A DNA stretch of 64,000 nucleotides from a virus (Duplodnaviria; Caudoviricetes): the IMG/VR virus record IMGVR_UViG_3300045747_000505. One strand, written 5' to 3'. A model generated the notes under the pieces. That model was not told where the DNA came from. It saw only the letters and a list, made by a program, of their open reading frames with translations, and searched no databases. Below are positions 2,876 to 62,137 of this stretch, piece by piece (the first letter of the stretch is position 1; the number at the start of each line of letters is the position of its first letter). A program made the position numbers and the translations under genes.

Positions 2876-2965
2876 GGGTCTGTAGCTCAGCTGGCAGAGC
2901 AGTTGGCTAGGCGCGTAAGCGCTGAAACCGACGAGTCGGATGTTCGAATCATCCCAGACCCACCA
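2876..2965 (+). tRNA. tRNA body with a 21-nt anticodon loop (14-nt GNRA hairpin insertion)
   Basis: Perfect acceptor, D and T arms and CCA. Loop CTA-GGCGC-GTAA-GCGCT-GAAA. Confidence 0.7.
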
Positions 2966-3145: not shown

Positions 3146-3796
3146 ATGGTTCAAGCAAGCAGACGCAAGCACCACTACATTTACAAAATTACGCAGGTTG
3201 ATACCGGCAGATTCTACATTGGGATGCACTCAACAGATAATCTCAACGACGAGTATTTCGGTTCTGGGAAAATCATAACCGCTTCGATTAAGAAGCACGG
3301 CAAAGATAAGTTCATCAAAGAAATTCTTGAGCACCTACCATCCCGCGAAGCACTGAAACTTCGAGAGGAGACTATTGTGAATGCCGAGTTAATCAATGAT
3401 GCCCTTTGTATGAATCTTCAGATCGGAGGTGGCGGCGGTTTTAGTAATGACGCGCACCAACGTCGATGCTCAGAAGTTGGTAAGGCACGCTTCCTTGAAA
3501 AGCTAAAGGACCCAGAGTTTGCTGCAACCTATGCAAAGACCCATAAAATTTCTACACGAAAACGTATTGACGAGGCGTGTGAAGAGTTTGGTTTTTGGCA
3601 CAACGGCTTCGTAGGCAAAAGACATAGCGCCGAATCAAAAGCCAAAATAGGCAAAGGCAATTCATTAGCACAACTTGGTGAGAGAAACTCCCAATTTGGA
3701 ACGAAATGGATGCATTTCGATAAACAAAATGTAAAAGTTAAACCGCACGAAGTGAATGATTTCCTTCAGCGTGGTTTCAACTTTGGACGAACATAG
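3146..3796 (+). CDS. GIY-YIG homing endonuclease (SegB-like)
   Basis: HYIYKITQVDTGRFYIGMHST...YFGSG; lies in tRNA cluster; TAAATA upstream. Confidence 0.9.
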   Translation: MVQASRRKHHYIYKITQVDTGRFYIGMHSTDNLNDEYFGSGKIITASIKKHGKDKFIKEILEHLPSREALKLREETIVNAELINDALCMNLQIGGGGGFSNDAHQRRCSEVGKARFLEKLKDPEFAATYAKTHKISTRKRIDEACEEFGFWHNGFVGKRHSAESKAKIGKGNSLAQLGERNSQFGTKWMHFDKQNVKVKPHEVNDFLQRGFNFGRT

Positions 3797-5333: not shown

Positions 5334-5405
5334 TTTCACGTAGCTCAATAGGCAGCAGCACCGCTTAGTATGGCGGGGATGCGGGTTCGAGCCCCGTCGT
5401 GTAAT
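5334..5405 (+). pseudogene. Degenerate tRNA (AGT-like loop)
   Basis: D-arm TAGCTCAATAGGCAGCAGC and GGTTCGAGCCC T-arm; irregular anticodon loop; no CCA. Confidence 0.5.
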
Positions 5406-5423
5406 CGTGGCATTCAATTCCAT

Positions 5424-27719: not shown

Positions 27720-28838
27720 ATGAAGGTCTATCTGGTTGGCGGCGCCGTCCGCGACATGCTGTTGAACCGTACGCCCAAGGATCGCGACTACGTGGTCGTT
27801 GGCGCTACCGAGCAGGAGCTGCTCGACGACGGGTTCGAGCGCGTTGGCAAGGACTTCCCAGTCTTTCTGCACCCCGTCACGAAGGACGAGTGGGCGCTGG
27901 CACGAACCGAGCGCAAGGTCGGGCGTGGCTACGGTGGCTTCGAGGTCGAGACGGATGACGTCACGATCGAGCAGGACTTGGAGCGCCGTGATCTGACGAT
28001 CAACTCCATCGCCTACGACGCTGAAGAAGATCTGTACGTCGACCCACATGGCGGTGTCTACGATCTGCAACGCCACATGCTGCGCCACACGTCCGATGCC
28101 TTTCGCGAGGACCCGCTGCGCGTCGTTCGACTGGCTCGCTTCTACGCGCGCTACGCTCAACACGGCTTCACGGTCGCCGCTGGAACGATGACGCTGGCCG
28201 CCGAAGTGGTTGACAGCGGCGAGCTGGACGAGCTGCCGGATGAACGCTTCTGGGCCGAGCTGGAGAAGGTCTTCACCGACGATGGTCAGCCAGCCAAGTT
28301 CTTCGAGCTGCTGTACGAGGTTGGCGCGCTGAACGACGTTCGCTTCTTCCGTGAGCTGTTCGGTCCGAACGTCACGTCGCACTCGCTGGATCGCATCATG
28401 AGAATGGCGCGGTCAGTCTTCAACGTGATTGAACCAGCTGCTCGCGTCGACTTCTTCGCAGCTGGGACGATGCCGTTGGGTGTGCTGCCGATGACGTTCT
28501 CGACCACGCGGTGCATGAAGCTGTACGCTGCGCAGCGCGACATTCGCCTGATCCACACGCAGAACCCGGCGACGCTGGTCGAGTTTCTGACGCGCATCAG
28601 CGCTTGGAACTCGCGCACCACCGCCGACGATCTGGTCGCACTGTTGGACGTCGTCGAGGACGCCGGCTACAACTCGCTGTACCCGTTCGAGTCGACGGAG
28701 CTGGCCGAGATCATTCAAGCTGGCCGGAGCGTCGTGTCTGGGCCGTTCCAACACCTGGTTGGCAGGGCAATCGGTCAGGCCATGATGTCCGAACGGATCG
28801 TTCGCGTCAACGACGCGCTGAACCGTATCAGCTCTTGA
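27720..28838 (+). CDS. cca: tRNA nucleotidyltransferase (CCA-adding enzyme, class II)
   Basis: YLVGGAVRD..DRDY, ALARTERK, RRDLTIN, EDPLRVVRLARF. Confidence 0.95.
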   Translation: MKVYLVGGAVRDMLLNRTPKDRDYVVVGATEQELLDDGFERVGKDFPVFLHPVTKDEWALARTERKVGRGYGGFEVETDDVTIEQDLERRDLTINSIAYDAEEDLYVDPHGGVYDLQRHMLRHTSDAFREDPLRVVRLARFYARYAQHGFTVAAGTMTLAAEVVDSGELDELPDERFWAELEKVFTDDGQPAKFFELLYEVGALNDVRFFRELFGPNVTSHSLDRIMRMARSVFNVIEPAARVDFFAAGTMPLGVLPMTFSTTRCMKLYAAQRDIRLIHTQNPATLVEFLTRISAWNSRTTADDLVALLDVVEDAGYNSLYPFESTELAEIIQAGRSVVSGPFQHLVGRAIGQAMMSERIVRVNDALNRISS

Positions 28839-43272: not shown

Positions 43273-44328
43273 ATGTCCAAGCTCCTCACTCGTGAAGCCT
43301 TTCGTGAAGGCGTCTTCGCCCGCGACGGCCACAAGTGCGTGGTCTGCGGCAAGACCGCTGAGCAAACCCCTGAGGGCAAGCTCGACGCGCATCACATCAT
43401 CGAACGTCGGCTCTGGTCCGACGGCGGCTACTACCTCGACAACGGAGCAACGGTCTGTGAAGAACATCACCTGGAGTGCGAGCGAACTATCCGCAGCGTC
43501 GAAGAAGTTCGAGCTCAATGTGGTATTACCACGATTGTCGTCCCCGACCAATTTTACCCCGAGCAGCCAATCACCAAGTGGGGCGACTATGTCCTCGATA
43601 ACGGCTACCGCACAAAGGGTGAGCTGTTCTTTGACGTCAGCGTACAGAAGGTCCTGCGGGACGCCGGAGTCCTAGACCTCTACGTTCCGTACGTCAAGTA
43701 CGGTCGGACGTTCCATCTGCCGTTCTCGCCTGGGATGCACGACGATGACAAGGCGCTGAAGGACTGCGAGCAGTTCGAAGGCAAGGACGTCGTCATCTCC
43801 ATCAAGTTCGACGGTGAGAACACCTCGGGCTACAGCGATGGCCACGTTCACGCTCGCTCCATCGACAGCCGTGGTGGCGAGGAGCGCGCCTGGGTCAAGC
43901 GATTCCTGGCCGAGAACGTGTGCTACAACCTACCCGAAGGGTGGCGCGTCTGTGGCGAGAACGTTTGGGCCGAGCACAGCATCAAGTACACCGACCTGCC
44001 CTCCTACTTCCTCGGCTTCAGCATCTGGAACGAGAAGAACGAATGTCTGTCGTGGGACGACACGCTCGAGTGGTTCGAGCTGCTGGACATCACGCCGGTC
44101 AAGGTTCTCTACCGTGGTCCGTTCAACGGCGACGTGCTGAAGTACGCGACCGAGTTCGTTGCTCCACTGTGGGAGACCACTGAGGGCTACGTCGTTCGCG
44201 TTGCCGATAGCTTCAAGTACGGCGACTTCAAGAAGAGCGTTGCGAAGTACGTTCGCAAGGGCCACGTTCAAACCCAGAAGCACTGGCGTGCCGGTGCTCA
44301 CTTCAAACCAAACGGACTCGCAAAGTGA
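43273..44328 (+). CDS. HNH domain fused to ATP-dependent RNA ligase
   Basis: CVVC...DAHHI...VCEEHH; KFDGEN (motif I), GEN, EGYV, KYV. Confidence 0.88.
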   Translation: MSKLLTREAFREGVFARDGHKCVVCGKTAEQTPEGKLDAHHIIERRLWSDGGYYLDNGATVCEEHHLECERTIRSVEEVRAQCGITTIVVPDQFYPEQPITKWGDYVLDNGYRTKGELFFDVSVQKVLRDAGVLDLYVPYVKYGRTFHLPFSPGMHDDDKALKDCEQFEGKDVVISIKFDGENTSGYSDGHVHARSIDSRGGEERAWVKRFLAENVCYNLPEGWRVCGENVWAEHSIKYTDLPSYFLGFSIWNEKNECLSWDDTLEWFELLDITPVKVLYRGPFNGDVLKYATEFVAPLWETTEGYVVRVADSFKYGDFKKSVAKYVRKGHVQTQKHWRAGAHFKPNGLAK

Positions 44329-51760: not shown

Positions 51761-51836
51761 GCGTCGTTATCCGATGTGGTCATGGAAGCTCCCTGAAGAG
51801 GAGATAAACCGGGTTCGATTCCTGGACGACGCACCA
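51761..51836 (+). tRNA. trnF: tRNA-Phe (GAA)
   Basis: Loop CTGAAGA, CCA. Confidence 0.88.
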
Positions 51837-52664: not shown

Positions 52665-53309
52665 ATGAACAAACATCATCTAGTTTATCGCACGACGAAC
52701 CTTCTGAACGGAAGGTATTACATCGGCATCCATTCAACGTCGAACATCGACGATGGGTATCTTGGTAGCGGTCGTAGGATCAAGGCGGAAATCAAGAAGT
52801 ACGGTCAAGAGAATTTCAAGCGTGAGATCCTTGAGTCATACCCAACAAGGCAAGAAGTCTTGAAACGCGAAGCCGAATTGGTCACTGAAGAACTTCGTCA
52901 AGATTCGCTCTGTCTGAATCTTAAGAATGGCGGCGAAGGCGGTTGGGAACATCTGAATGACAACTCTGAGGTCCAACGCGCAAAAGGACGTAAAGGAAAT
53001 GCCAGCATCAAGATCTTGGCAAATGATCCTATTTGGGCCGCATCAAGAAGCGCAGCAATCAGCAATGGTCTTCGCGGAAAGTCTGCTGGGTGGAGTGAAC
53101 AAGCAACAATGGCTTCGCACACCGATGAAGTAAATCAAAAGCGAAGTCGCACAATGAAAGACTTGGCAAGGCAATCAGGCCAAGCAAATTCCCAGTTCGG
53201 AACCTGTTGGGTGACCAACGGGTTTCCAATAAAGATCAAGAAACAAGATCTCGATTCGTATCTGACAAATGGATATGTTCGAGGAAGAACAAAACAATGG
53301 TGCACGTAG
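52665..53309 (+). CDS. GIY-YIG homing endonuclease (SegB-like)
   Basis: LVYRTTNLLNGRYYIGIHST...YLGSG; late promoter. Confidence 0.9.
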   Translation: MNKHHLVYRTTNLLNGRYYIGIHSTSNIDDGYLGSGRRIKAEIKKYGQENFKREILESYPTRQEVLKREAELVTEELRQDSLCLNLKNGGEGGWEHLNDNSEVQRAKGRKGNASIKILANDPIWAASRSAAISNGLRGKSAGWSEQATMASHTDEVNQKRSRTMKDLARQSGQANSQFGTCWVTNGFPIKIKKQDLDSYLTNGYVRGRTKQWCT

Positions 53310-58585: not shown

Positions 58586-60649
58586 GTGAAGCAGCTCACA
58601 CCAGTAGCGCTTGCCGTGGCGCTACTTCACAGCACAGCACAGGCTGAACCAGTCGCCCTACGCGCTGTCAACAGCACGGTTGACCAGACAACATCAATCG
58701 TTCGGCTCGAGCTCTCAAAGCAAATCGCGCTGCCAACAGCCTTTACCAGCGATTCGTCAACCGTCGTTGTAGACCTTGACAATGTCAAGAACATTGGCTC
58801 ACGCAAGCTGCTTGTCAACAAGGGCAACCTCAATGAGGTCAACGTTCGCACCAGCGGCGACCGCACGCGCGTCACCATCTCGCTGACCGGACGCTCGAAC
58901 TACGACCTCACCGTTGACGGTGCCTCCATCGTCATCGTGTTCAAGCCGCCATCAGACACTGCCCGCACCAAGGCGTCTGCCGCGATGGTGATTCAACCGA
59001 CCATTGAGTTTCCATCCTCATCGCCGAAGGGCGAGACGCCAGACAAGCTGCTCGCCAACGCGAAGATTGCCTATGAGGCCGGCAACTTTCAAACGGCGCT
59101 TGAGAAGCTGAACGGACTGCTGATTCTGCCACCATCGGCTTCAACGCAAGAGGGTCAAGAGCTGATTGGGCAGGTGCGTGAGCGGCTGAAGCAGCCTGAG
59201 AAGGCGATGGCTGAGTACAAGGCGTTCATCGCGATGTACCCAGACAGCCCAGCCGTGGCGCGCACTCGTCAGCGCCTGCTCGCCCTTGAGATTGCCACAC
59301 CAGACAAGGTCCCAGAGCAGCGCGCTCGCAAGGCGAAGACAGGCAAGGGCAATGACGTCACGGGCAGCGTGGCAACCTACCTCTACGTTGGTGCGGCACC
59401 TGCCAAGGCGCTGACCTGGACAGCAGACCAGCAGGTGCTAATCAACAATGCATCGGCGACTGCGACGTTTCGCGATGACCAATACACAGTCAAGGTCGCC
59501 GGGCGTGGGTCGGTGCTCACCAATCTTCTTGACAGATCCCGTCATCGCAACTCGCTGTCGGTCTTCAACGTCTCGCTCGACGACAGTCTTCACGACTACG
59601 GCGTTCGACTCGGGCGCCAGAACGCCACCGCTGGCATTCTCGGGCGCTTCGATGGCGCCTCTGGTTACTACAATCTGACCGCCGATACGAAGATGCTGTT
59701 CGGCTTCGGCGCTCCGTATCTTAGCTCGCCATCAACTCGTCGAACTGCCAGCATTGGCATCGATTCATCGCTCACCTCCACGCTTGGTGTTCAGGCGTAT
59801 CTCAACAAGCAGAAGGTTGATGGCGTCACAGAGCGCAGCGCTCTTGGACTTGAGGGTCGCTACTTCAATAACGGTCTGTCGCTCACCGGCACCGTTGAGT
59901 ACGATACGCTCTACAAGGTGCTGAACACCTCAATGGTTCAGGGCACTTGGGTCTTCGGCGACAACACGCTCTACTTTCTAGCCGATCGTCGATTGGCGCC
60001 AGCGCTCTTCGCTGAGCGCCTGCTTCAGCTCGACTCAGCGGCTGGACCGCGCTACGGAACTGTTGGCGAAGCCTTTGGAACCTCTGGCTTCTCGCGTGAC
60101 GAGCTCTACGCCTATCTGGCAGCGTCATCGCCAGTCTCGAAGGCGTTCGTGGTAAGCTGGAGCAATCAGATTACGCCAAAGTGGCTTGGTTCAATCAGCG
60201 GTCAAACGACGAACTACTACACGCCATTCAATCAGTCAGTCATTCCAACTGAGGAGCCAATCGCTCCGGTGCAGACGATCAGCTCAATGAAGGGTCTGAA
60301 CGTTCAGCTGCTTGGGTCTGACACGCCGATGAAGGGTGGTTCCATTCATCTGCTCGGCAACTACAGCAAGTCGAAGGAGACGGCGCTTTGGTATACGGCG
60401 CTACTTAGCTCGTTCGCTTGGCGCTCGTCAAAGGTCGACGTGATGCTGAGAACCGACCGAACGATGCGCCAGTTCACGACGATTGGCAGCGTTGGTGGGT
60501 CAGTCCGCCTCAACTACAAGTTCGACTCTGGCATCTCGATTGAAACGCAGTACAGTCTGACGCGCACCACCACCGTCGATGAGCTTATGCTTCTCTCAAC
60601 CATTCTAAATAGTCAGACGTTCTTCATCGGGTTCCGCTATGAAATCTAG
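58586..60649 (+). CDS. Outer-membrane protein: AMIN-like domain, TPR, C-terminal beta-barrel (porin-like)
   Basis: Signal peptide; RTRVTISL AMIN-like; AMAEYKAFIAMYPDS TPR; amphipathic strands ending GFRYEI. Confidence 0.78.
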   Translation: MKQLTPVALAVALLHSTAQAEPVALRAVNSTVDQTTSIVRLELSKQIALPTAFTSDSSTVVVDLDNVKNIGSRKLLVNKGNLNEVNVRTSGDRTRVTISLTGRSNYDLTVDGASIVIVFKPPSDTARTKASAAMVIQPTIEFPSSSPKGETPDKLLANAKIAYEAGNFQTALEKLNGLLILPPSASTQEGQELIGQVRERLKQPEKAMAEYKAFIAMYPDSPAVARTRQRLLALEIATPDKVPEQRARKAKTGKGNDVTGSVATYLYVGAAPAKALTWTADQQVLINNASATATFRDDQYTVKVAGRGSVLTNLLDRSRHRNSLSVFNVSLDDSLHDYGVRLGRQNATAGILGRFDGASGYYNLTADTKMLFGFGAPYLSSPSTRRTASIGIDSSLTSTLGVQAYLNKQKVDGVTERSALGLEGRYFNNGLSLTGTVEYDTLYKVLNTSMVQGTWVFGDNTLYFLADRRLAPALFAERLLQLDSAAGPRYGTVGEAFGTSGFSRDELYAYLAASSPVSKAFVVSWSNQITPKWLGSISGQTTNYYTPFNQSVIPTEEPIAPVQTISSMKGLNVQLLGSDTPMKGGSIHLLGNYSKSKETALWYTALLSSFAWRSSKVDVMLRTDRTMRQFTTIGSVGGSVRLNYKFDSGISIETQYSLTRTTTVDELMLLSTILNSQTFFIGFRYEI

Positions 60650-61322
60650 CCTGCTGCTTGCACTGCTTCTCTTCGCCTCATCCTGCTTCGGCGCCGAGTG
60701 CACGCTCTACGAGAAGACGCACCCAACGTTTCTGCTCGATGGAGCGCACCTCTCCACCGGCAAGTGCAACACCTGCGCCTCGTGCCACAAGGGCGGCGTG
60801 TTCATGGGAACACCACGAACCTGCATCGGGTGCCACAACGGCGACCCAGCTCGAATGACCGTAGGACGCAGCCCCACGCATATTCCAACTGGATTGATTG
60901 ACTGCAACACGTGTCACAAGACGCTTGCCTTCACCATCGGCACTGTGATGAACCACACGGCGGTCACGACCATCCAGTGTCGAGCCTGCCACGACGGCTT
61001 TCACCTTACATCGAACGCGCTTGGCAAACCGTCCAACCACATTCCAGAAATCAACCTGATTGGCGGGTCGACGATGGACTGCAACCTCTGTCACAAGTCA
61101 ACCATCACTTGGACTGGCGCTGTCACGAACCACAACAACACGCCTGGCAATGGCGCTGGCTGGTGCGTTGGCTGTCACCTGCGTGGACAGACTTGGCTGG
61201 GCGCAGGCACTCGAATGTTGCTCAATCATCGCAATAAGACGCCGCCTCCGACGGATTGCTCAATGTCTGGCTGCCATCGCCCACTTGGCAACACGGGAAC
61301 CACCTACAGAAGTTGGGACTGA
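60639..61322 (+). CDS. Multiheme c-type cytochrome (6 CxxCH plus 1 Cx4CH)
   Basis: Signal peptide; CASCH, CIGCH, CNTCH, CRACH, CNLCH, CVGCH, CSMSGCH. Confidence 0.93.
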   Translation: MKSSLLLALLLFASSCFGAECTLYEKTHPTFLLDGAHLSTGKCNTCASCHKGGVFMGTPRTCIGCHNGDPARMTVGRSPTHIPTGLIDCNTCHKTLAFTIGTVMNHTAVTTIQCRACHDGFHLTSNALGKPSNHIPEINLIGGSTMDCNLCHKSTITWTGAVTNHNNTPGNGAGWCVGCHLRGQTWLGAGTRMLLNHRNKTPPPTDCSMSGCHRPLGNTGTTYRSWD

Positions 61323-61411
61323 ACCTCACTTAATTTAGCTTAATCATGAACCTAAGATAAAATGAGCAGGCTGATAAATACTTAACATCTGTTTACTTCC
61401 TGGAGAACGCC

Positions 61412-62137
61412 ATGTTCCGCAAACTTCTAGCAATCCTCTCACTCGCCGTCTCGAGCCTACTGATGCCTGGCACGGTAGCGCTCGTCTCGCTCGCACCATC
61501 TACCGCGCTGGCGGCGGAGTGCACCCTATACGAGCAATCACATCCAGCGTTTACCCTGGATGGCAGCCACATGTCAACTGGTAAATGCTCGACGTGCGCC
61601 TCGTGCCACCTCTCCGGCATCTTCATCGGCACGCCGAAGACGTGTATCGCCTGTCACAACGGCGACCCGCTTCGCGTGACGGTCGGTCGCTCACCGCAGC
61701 ACATTCCGACAACGGTCATTGACTGCAACAACTGCCACACAACCGGCTCATTCCTGACGAATTTCAACATGAACCACACCGCCGTTGCTGGTCAGCGCTG
61801 CGATACCTGCCACACTGGCACCTTCAAGGCCGTCTACAACGCCGATGGCAAGCCGAACACTCACGTGCCAACCACGTCTGACTGCGGCACCTGCCACCAG
61901 TCGCGTACCGCCTGGGGTGTTCAGCACGAGGTCCTCCACGCTGGCGTCACCACTGGCTGCGTCACCTGCCACGATGGCTCCTACGCCGTTGGCAAGTCGA
62001 ACTACGCTCCTGGCCACCCTCTGACCTCTGACCAGTGCGAGACGTGCCACAGCATCAACGCCAACTTCAAGTGCGCCAGCCTCGGCGACCTCATGAAGAA
62101 CTTCGCGTTCATTCGCAAGGCTTTCAACATCGCCTAA
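61412..62137 (+). CDS. Heptaheme c-type cytochrome
   Basis: Signal peptide; CASCH, CIACH, CNNCH, CDTCH, CGTCH, CVTCH, CETCH. Confidence 0.95.
   Translation: MFRKLLAILSLAVSSLLMPGTVALVSLAPSTALAAECTLYEQSHPAFTLDGSHMSTGKCSTCASCHLSGIFIGTPKTCIACHNGDPLRVTVGRSPQHIPTTVIDCNNCHTTGSFLTNFNMNHTAVAGQRCDTCHTGTFKAVYNADGKPNTHVPTTSDCGTCHQSRTAWGVQHEVLHAGVTTGCVTCHDGSYAVGKSNYAPGHPLTSDQCETCHSINANFKCASLGDLMKNFAFIRKAFNIA

Follow-up and report, generated by a model that had tools for sequence, protein, structure and literature searches.

A conserved phage tRNA body with a tetraloop hairpin in its anticodon loop

A gene in the tRNA array of a huge phage combines an intact class-I tRNA body with a 21-nt anticodon loop, most of which is taken up by a tetraloop hairpin. 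This gene, called X below, occupies positions 2876 to 2965 of the window, by which we mean the whole 64,000-nt stretch of phage DNA that was analysed (IMG/VR record IMGVR_UViG_3300045747_000505). Judged by the pattern of base changes between X and an orthologous gene in a second phage, X is a real feature that is under selection, and it probably specifies a working RNA that is unable to read codons. Why keep a tRNA that lacks an anticodon? We tentatively read X as a tRNA mimic or scaffold that presents a structured arm instead of decoding.

An intact tRNA body without a decoding loop

The original prediction, made from the letters of the window, described an otherwise perfect tRNA with a 14-nt hairpin in the anticodon loop. 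That description is accurate to the base, with 21 of 21 stem pairs formed and a loop of 21 nt. The parts of X, assigned from the sequence and by the means given in brackets, are:

2876–2965, + strand: X, the whole tRNA-shaped gene, 90 nt including A73 and CCA (Rfam RF00005, 50 bits; ARAGORN; our own model R1, 108 bits)
2876–2882, + strand: acceptor stem, 5′ strand GGGTCTG, 7 of 7 pairs with 2955–2961
2885–2900, + strand: D arm, GCTC-AGCTGGCA-GAGC, with A14 and G18 G19 present (also cmscan alignment)
2902–2906, + strand: anticodon stem, 5′ strand GTTGG, 5 of 5 pairs with 2928–2932, one of them G-U
2907–2909, + strand: CUA, the 5′ flank of the hairpin (C32, U33, A); the CUA flank also occurs in the loci L253 and L295 described below
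2910–2923, + strand: hairpin GGCGC-GUAA-GCGCU, 14 nt, with a 5-bp stem, a closing G-U pair and a GNRA tetraloop (minimum-energy fold); its parts are GGCGC at 2910–2914, GTAA at 2915–2918 and GCGCT at 2919–2923
2924–2927, + strand: GAAA, the 3′ flank of the hairpin
2928–2932, + strand: anticodon stem, 3′ strand CCGAC (also pair counts)
2933–2937, + strand: variable loop GAGTC, short (class I), with G46 and C48
2938–2954, + strand: T arm, GGATG-TTCGAAT-CATCC, stem 5 of 5 pairs (also cmscan alignment)
2955–2965, + strand: acceptor stem, 3′ strand CAGACCC, followed by discriminator A73 and the encoded CCA (2962–2965)

The D stem has 4 bp, U8, A9 and A26 are in place, and X carries all the usual tertiary-contact bases. 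As a tRNA it scores 50.0 bits with Rfam RF00005, whose gathering score is 29, and all 21 cloverleaf pairs are formed; the Rfam alignment accommodates the gene by putting 19 unaligned bases into the anticodon loop. X shares with canonical elongator tRNAs (RF00005) the cloverleaf, U8, A14, G18 G19, G53 T54 T55 C56, A58, the class-I variable loop, A73, the CCA end and a place in a tRNA operon. As a decoder, however, it fails: where an elongator tRNA has a 7-nt U-turn loop with U33, a triplet at positions 34–36 and a purine at 37, X has 21 nt with the 14-nt tetraloop hairpin and no usable anticodon. ARAGORN run without introns returns a poor, forced Ala(ggc) fold, and with introns allowed it reports Ser(aga) with a 14-nt intron. 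The hairpin belongs to the minimum-energy fold of X (z = −3.55), and the arm alone reaches −13.8 kcal/mol. The GAAA flank below it may be a structural GAA element, or else what is left of a GAA anticodon together with A37.

Genomic setting

The window is part of the genome of a huge phage and holds 46 tRNA calls by ARAGORN, arranged in two arrays. The genes that bear on the interpretation of X are:

2794–2866, + strand: tRNA-Gly(tcc), ending 9 nt upstream of X; it also precedes the orthologue of X in locus L015
2968–3098, + strand: next tRNA-shaped gene, 2 nt downstream of X, with a 58-nt insert in the anticodon loop (Rfam tRNA, 45.1 bits; ARAGORN -i)
27720–28838: CCA-adding enzyme
43273–44328: RNA ligase (PF09414)
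51761–51836: normal tRNA-Phe(gaa) (ARAGORN)
645–732: normal tRNA-Ser(tga) (ARAGORN)

A helicase, a metallophosphoesterase and a shortened release factor are also encoded. ARAGORN finds ordinary Ser(tga), Phe(gaa) and Arg(acg) genes, and isoacceptors are present in the window for every candidate reading of X; the true Ser tRNAs of the window are class II and 88–92 nt long. Two other tRNA-shaped genes of the window hold inserts at the position of the insert in X.

Several further observations concern the window itself. Genes for SegE-like GIY-YIG endonucleases and for a DUF559 endonuclease are set between the tRNA genes (3146–3796, 52665–53309 and 1451–2089), a layout that is also that of segB in the T4 tRNA cluster. 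The tRNA that ARAGORN reports at 5334–5406 has an anticodon of four bases (agta); its loop region, UUAGUAU, contains AGUA, and it scores only 35.8 bits as an Rfam tRNA. Two adjoining open reading frames at 60639–62137 carry multihaem cytochrome c7/c3 motifs.

An orthologue with a rebuilt hairpin

One true orthologue lineage of X was found. It is represented in locus L015, whose source record (IMGVR_UViG_3300025597_000014) is also that of L092, L161 and L166, and a gene identical to it is present in a second, separately assembled sample (L093). The window and L015 have in common the gene order Pro(tgg)-Gly(gcc)-Gly(tcc)-X...Leu(cag)-Leu(gag), and in both a homologous DUF559 gene (55–57% identity) stands just upstream. 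The L015 gene and X are each other's best match, at an identity of 0.72 compared with 0.6–0.9 for the other orthologous tRNA pairs. The covariance model R1, which was built on these two genes, gives them 108 and 100 bits, and every ordinary tRNA in 1.35 Mb scores 65 bits or less.

The two genes agree in 55 of 90 aligned columns (61%). Across the 21 cloverleaf pairs, 42 of 42 cells hold a standard pair: seven pairs have changed on both sides, three on one side, and none is broken, whereas controls with slid partners reach only 33–55% pairing. The anticodon stem has three double-sided compensatory changes and not one mismatch. Above it, the loop of the L015 gene reads UG-AGUA / GCC-UUCG-GGC / GAA-AC and is again 21 nt long, and the hairpins that occupy the same slot are unrelated in sequence, GGCGC-GUAA-GCGCU in the window and GCC-UUCG-GGC in L015. 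Between the two phages the hairpin has been rebuilt with a new stem and with an extra-stable tetraloop of another class, and the length of the loop has stayed the same. Covariation in the hairpin was read by direct parsing and not from a tool count, MAFFT having given a meaningless alignment of such short arms. Because the hairpin was rebuilt with another stem and tetraloop while all stem pairs were kept, we infer selection on the shape of the RNA. The intergenic DNA of the two phages is unalignable, and in our reading the matches between them come from genes only. Homologues with a normal loop and stem-breaking mutations had been named beforehand as the outcome that would count against the feature; the L015 gene shows the reverse, with its 21-nt hairpin loop retained and every stem cell paired.

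Apart from the rarity of the feature, nothing speaks for X as a mis-assembled or randomly mutated tRNA gene, and we regard such an accident as highly improbable: identical L015-type copies stand in two separately assembled samples (L015/L092 and L093), the gene is conserved between orthologues, and the design recurs in unrelated phages, as set out below.

The same comparison bears on the origin of the hairpin. The GTAA cap had been seen to match that of the insert in the neighbouring gene at 2968, and X had on this account been thought a possible minimal remnant of that insertion. The shared GC-GTAA-GC is real but not significant, as GCGTAAGC occurs 3 times where 1.65 copies are expected, a count equalled or exceeded in 26 of 100 shuffles. 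With this 8-mer at chance level in the window, and with UUCG and not GTAA as the cap in L015, the remnant idea is not upheld.

Rarity and the search for relatives

We collected 160 related loci with the nearby release-factor gene as an anchor. In the window and the first 80 of these loci, a strict cloverleaf parser found 385 class-I cloverleaves with 7-nt loops and only three clean enlarged anticodon loops, namely X, its orthologue (L015 6593–6681) and a gene in L013 (5642–5743); a relaxed scan of all 161 sources yielded no further clean enlarged loops. A blastn-short search of X against 80 related loci gave D-arm matches only, and a BLAST search of the X region against 50,697 GenBank phages gave only generic matches to tRNA-Gly. 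An X-specific pattern with a variable loop had zero matches both in IMG/VR and in 185,579 prokaryote genomes, as did an AGUA-type pattern in 185,579 prokaryote species with one genome each. The adjacent DUF559 gene, used as an anchor in the form of a single protein, returned no matches, and a two-sequence DUF559 profile matched the L015 contig and otherwise just one unrelated array, in which there is no X-like gene.

The L013 gene is of tRNA-Trp type (A1-U72, G73; the nearest bodies are all Trp) and has a 28-nt hairpin inside the anticodon, between CUCC and AAA; its helix has 10 bp, and the cuts needed to remove it would be offset by 2 bp, which in our reading fits RNase III. Other departures from the usual tRNA form occur in relatives of the window phage. 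Extra GNRA-capped hairpins, such as GACGAAAGTC, are found in the variable region of genes at L015:6503–6588, L017:3157–3247, L012:5887–5980, L009:36–123 and elsewhere, on the class-I isotypes Gly, Asn, Lys, Cys and Thr, and the Ile(tat) genes have long variable arms.

Hairpin-armed tRNA bodies in other phages

To look beyond these loci, IMG/VR was scanned with three IUPAC patterns that had the D arm and the T loop as anchors. The first scan, with 34–48 nt between D arm and T loop, matched at least 118 stretches; among the matches listed, 114 were tRNA-shaped, and a perfect anticodon stem below a loop of at least 10 nt was present in 23 distinct genes, often as a simple extension of the hairpin. 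Narrower patterns yielded genes with an arm of the X type, which are, with their hairpins given in brackets:

L253, 13432–13521: CUA(GGUGGU-GAAA-ACCACC)GAA, in the tRNA array of a complete 177.8-kb phage
L284, 6770–6857: CU-AGUA(GGAC-GCGA-GUCC)GAA-AC
L295 (also L296 and L299): CUA(GUUCUC-GUCA-GAGAGC)GAAAC, with a weak anticodon stem
L294: AGUA(GGUGCC...GGCAUC)GAA, a looser relative with no clear anticodon stem

All four score 46–55 bits as tRNA, above the Rfam threshold. The acceptor, anticodon and T stems differ among members, and the bodies of the five clean members are 47–71% identical. In every member the hairpin begins directly after UA and stops directly before GAA, letters that were partly built into the search since the patterns demanded CTA...GAA or AGTA...GAAAC; the clean hairpin that fills the space between these flanks was not built in. 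L284 moreover repeats the AGUA...GAAAC layout of L015, which the pattern that found it had not demanded. On this sequence evidence, the UA-hairpin-GAA design recurs on different tRNA bodies in unrelated phages. The family may be common, and its members are probably mislabelled, ARAGORN calling them Ala, Leu or undetermined.

The body of X is nearest to tRNA-Arg(ACG), at 78% to a gene at L018 5701, and lacks A20. We have dropped an Arg(ACG) origin as unproven; the bodies of other members point to Phe/Ala, Met or Thr/Gly, with no consistent identity.

The settings of the genes differ as well. In the available flanks of the X-bearing loci no common partner gene was found, and the flanking genes are unrelated. 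The L295 gene belongs to a 37-kb phage with terminal repeats, in which it is the sole match to the tRNA family; its neighbours are a Cpn10-like gene and, directly downstream, the large terminase gene. This solitary position next to the terminase gene argues for a role other than codon supply.

Other observations were made in the same scans. Among the matches listed, the loci L163–L280 (for example L257, L213, L164, L193 and L199) contain dozens of viral tRNA-shaped genes with perfect acceptor, D and T arms, whose anticodon arms are a long continuous hairpin or carry a hairpin in the loop, and many of which have no encoded CCA; an example is L199, with TATA plus the 14-nt GCAGG-GACG-CCTGC. Some 700 nt downstream of the X-like gene in L284 lies a permuted, two-piece tmRNA gene (L284:7577–7940; RF04321, 74 bits), and the same phage fragment encodes a family A DNA polymerase. 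In the L253 contig (G001:C1:35783–37876) RtcB is matched in two pieces about 900 nt apart within one open frame of 735 aa, which suggests an intein or another insertion.

Excision and decay as alternatives

Could cutting turn X back into a decoder? A possible though doubtful alternative is that its hairpin is a mini-intron removed by proteins, in which case an endonuclease of the host or the phage would cut on both sides and the phage RNA ligase (43273–44328) or host RtcB would reseal the halves. The product would be a decoder: a cut after U33 would make it one of the Phe(GAA) type, and the loss of exactly 14 nt one of the Ser type. The inserts that two other tRNA-shaped genes of the window have in the corresponding position are in keeping with this, as are the RNA ligase (PF09414), CCA-adding enzyme and metallophosphoesterase that the window encodes. 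The phages of L015 and L253 also have an RNA ligase of PF09414, and that of L253 has RtcB in addition. Lak megaphage tRNAs 'with enigmatic introns', a tRNA-Phe(GAA) among them, are on record without a mechanism (10.1101/356790).

Enumeration of the possible products speaks against such excision in X. Removal of any contiguous 14 nt leaves CUUGAAA (anticodon UGA), CUAGAAA (AGA), or one of CUAGGAA, CUAGGCA and CUAGGCG (AGG), and a GAA read as a Phe anticodon after U33 leaves a loop of 6 nt, CUGAAA. The original prediction had held that excision would place Ser anticodons (TGA or AGA) on a body with a short variable arm; ARAGORN and the enumeration agree. The main identity element for SerRS is the long variable arm of class II tRNAs, and X, with its 5-nt variable loop GAGTC and its A73, fails as tRNA-Ser. 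The loop of the L015 gene has G as its second base and GC at the start of its last seven bases, and neither a contiguous 14-nt excision nor any other single excision gives U33. In neither gene does a single excision produce a canonical loop that is concordant with the body. L253 is left with 5 nt when its insert is removed.

Other relatives behave differently. L284 and L295 without their insert (A(GUA) plus hairpin) have a perfect Phe-type loop, CUGAAAC, and in L013 the loss of the 28 nt yields CUCCAAA, a perfect Trp loop that suits its Trp-type body, with implied cuts offset by 2 bp in the manner of RNase III. Since these loops can be restored, some inserts of the family may be spliced. Across the family, however, the implied cut geometry varies from member to member and the isotype of the body is inconsistent, and the 37-kb phage of L295 shows neither ligase family.

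The anatomy of the insert in X likewise fits none of the kinds of intron compared with it. The self-splicing core of a group I intron, as found in anticodon loops of the bacterial and cyanobacterial type, is made of the paired regions P1–P9 and takes some 200 nt or more, far above the 14 nt of X, and no intron family was matched in Rfam scans. Archaeal and eukaryal bulge-helix-bulge introns have two 3-nt bulges on opposite strands with a 4-bp helix between them; in X, CUA and GAAA face each other below a capped 5-bp hairpin, and a 4-bp-helix stagger is absent. Intervening sequences that RNase III excises are out for X as well, as this enzyme makes its cuts, offset by 2 bp, in a long duplex of about one to two helical turns, for which 5 bp is too short. 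Because excision is discordant in X and gives no U33 in L015, and because the window already has ordinary Ser, Phe and Arg(acg) genes (the normal tRNA-Phe(gaa) and tRNA-Ser(tga) listed above among them), an intron reading of this pair needs special pleading. Should the hairpin of X be spliced nonetheless, bacteria and their phages would have a route of tRNA splicing that depends on proteins.

We also think it unlikely that X is a relic without a function in trans, descended from a tRNA (perhaps an intron-bearing one) and no longer able to decode, whose shape either is kept as a signal for RNase P and 3′-end processing of its packed neighbours or has had too little time to decay. X does lie 9 nt and 2 nt from its neighbours, the isoacceptors of the window cover every candidate reading, the body remains closest to tRNA-Arg(ACG) even without A20, and the loop resembles a damaged form of the restorable ones (compare CUA...CGAA in L253 and CU...GAAAC in L295 and L284). 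Yet a processing signal needs the acceptor and T arms only, and it is the anticodon stem that has stayed free of mismatches through three double-sided compensatory changes. At 61% overall identity the two genes still have in common a loop length of 21 nt and a stable tetraloop hairpin, and the intergenic DNA of the same two phages can no longer be aligned.

Comparison with known systems

The closest described things to X are the species 1 and species 2 RNAs of phage T4 (rnaC and rnaD) and the tRNA 'introns' of Lak phages. The T4 RNAs are stable non-tRNA species encoded at the end of the T4 tRNA cluster beside segB (GIY-YIG Seg), a placement similar to that of X, and rnaC has a tRNA-like acceptor and T arm at its end. 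Both nevertheless fail the tRNA model (the best result is tRNA-Sec at 17.5 bits, below threshold), whereas X is a full tRNA body altered only in its anticodon loop; no sequence similarity between X and rnaC or rnaD was seen. The Lak megaphage tRNAs (10.1101/356790) resemble X in being genes of huge phages with short inserts below self-splicing size, one of them a tRNA-Phe(GAA). Their inserts are described as excisable to yield assignable tRNAs, a description that sets X and its L015 orthologue apart: removal of the insert leaves a canonical, assignable tRNA in L284, L295 and L013, and not in X or L015.

A man-made counterpart also exists. The engineered tRNA scaffold of Ponchon and Dardel retains the acceptor, T and D arms and takes up a hairpin insertion at the anticodon stem-loop, and such a tRNA, with its anticodon loop swapped for a hairpin, is processed and stable in E. 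coli (PMC3753655). X would be the natural counterpart, with only a tetraloop hairpin as its payload. A literature search found no paper that describes a UA-hairpin-GAA arm on a full tRNA body.

Other identities were considered and set aside. YrlA-type Y RNAs are, like X, tRNA-like, and act as protein partners and not as decoders, but X lacks the Ro60-binding stem, and the best match to RF02553, which runs from the T arm of X into the D arm of its downstream neighbour, scores 21.5 bits against a threshold of 69. A K-turn is out on anatomy. The consensus of the bulged-G motif (sarcin-ricin or loop E) sets AGUA against GAA beside a helix. X, with CUA opposite GAAA and the bulged G missing, does not match it; L015, L284 and L294 do, and in L015 and L284 the AGUA and GAA flank the hairpin helix directly. 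L284 starts CUAGUA, as does the sarcin-ricin loop of E. coli 23S RNA. In the sarcin-ricin motif 1 bp separates the motif from the tetraloop, against 3–6 bp in X-type arms, and the likeness is one of sequence.

Discussion

Our results point to X as an intact and selected RNA, most likely a non-decoding one. The original prediction had called it a non-decoding tRNA mimic, and the intact and probably non-decoding character of X is supported by the 21-nt loop of the L015 gene, the 42 of 42 paired cells, the seven compensatory changes and the failure of any single excision to rescue decoding. The same prediction offered a decoy for anticodon nucleases or uncharged-tRNA sensors as an example of what such a mimic might be; the sequence data favour no particular target. 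The mimic or scaffold reading that we favour leads to the following model. From its place in the array, X would be transcribed inside the phage tRNA operon, and its intact tertiary-contact bases predict a fold into the normal L-shape; with that shape, host RNase P and the 3′ trimming enzymes could therefore release it, and it would have tRNA-like stability. Where an anticodon would be, the RNA has a rigid extension, consisting of a small internal loop (CUA opposite GAAA) and the 5-bp GNRA-capped hairpin.

Such an RNA, going by established tRNA biology, could not base-pair with any codon presented in the A site of the ribosome. Anticodon-dependent synthetases would hardly recognise it, and X also lacks the anticodon-independent identity marks, namely G3:U70 (Ala), a long variable arm (Ser/Leu) and G-1 (His). 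Because it has no anticodon and no known mark of this second kind, X is unlikely to be charged. We speculate that the tRNA body might serve both as a stabilising scaffold and as bait, with the arm acting as a protein handle or a dummy target. The partner could conceivably be a host nuclease or sensor directed at tRNAs or at the sarcin-ricin loop, or else a phage protein.

Several reports make tRNA-directed conflict between phages and hosts relevant here. PIN toxins (VapC-type) cleave tRNA anticodon loops or the sarcin-ricin loop (PMC5175351). The variable loop of tRNA-Tyr is cleaved by the Septu defence, from which the homing endonuclease SegB allows phage T6 to escape through amplification of anti-defence loci (PMC13096335). 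An anti-CRISPR protein has been found accompanied by fragmented tRNAs and tmRNA. With these precedents, a counter-defence role for X is a plausible hypothesis. A bolder generalisation, which we consider quite improbable at present, is that anticodon-less UA-hairpin-GAA tRNAs form an undescribed phage-wide class in which the arm is a dummy target for host immune nucleases or sensors, an RNA-based counter-defence built on a tRNA scaffold. The attackers would then be those of anticodon loops or of the sarcin-ricin loop, such as PIN/VapC-type toxins, and the full sarcin-ricin-type AGUA/GAA module in some members would be part of the lure.

The tRNA genes of phages are usually explained by codon supply or by the replacement of host tRNAs that defence nucleases have cut. 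A conserved non-decoding tRNA body would point to a third use, in which the tRNA fold is a stable and correctly processed carrier of a small RNA module, or a bait for host proteins that are directed at tRNAs.
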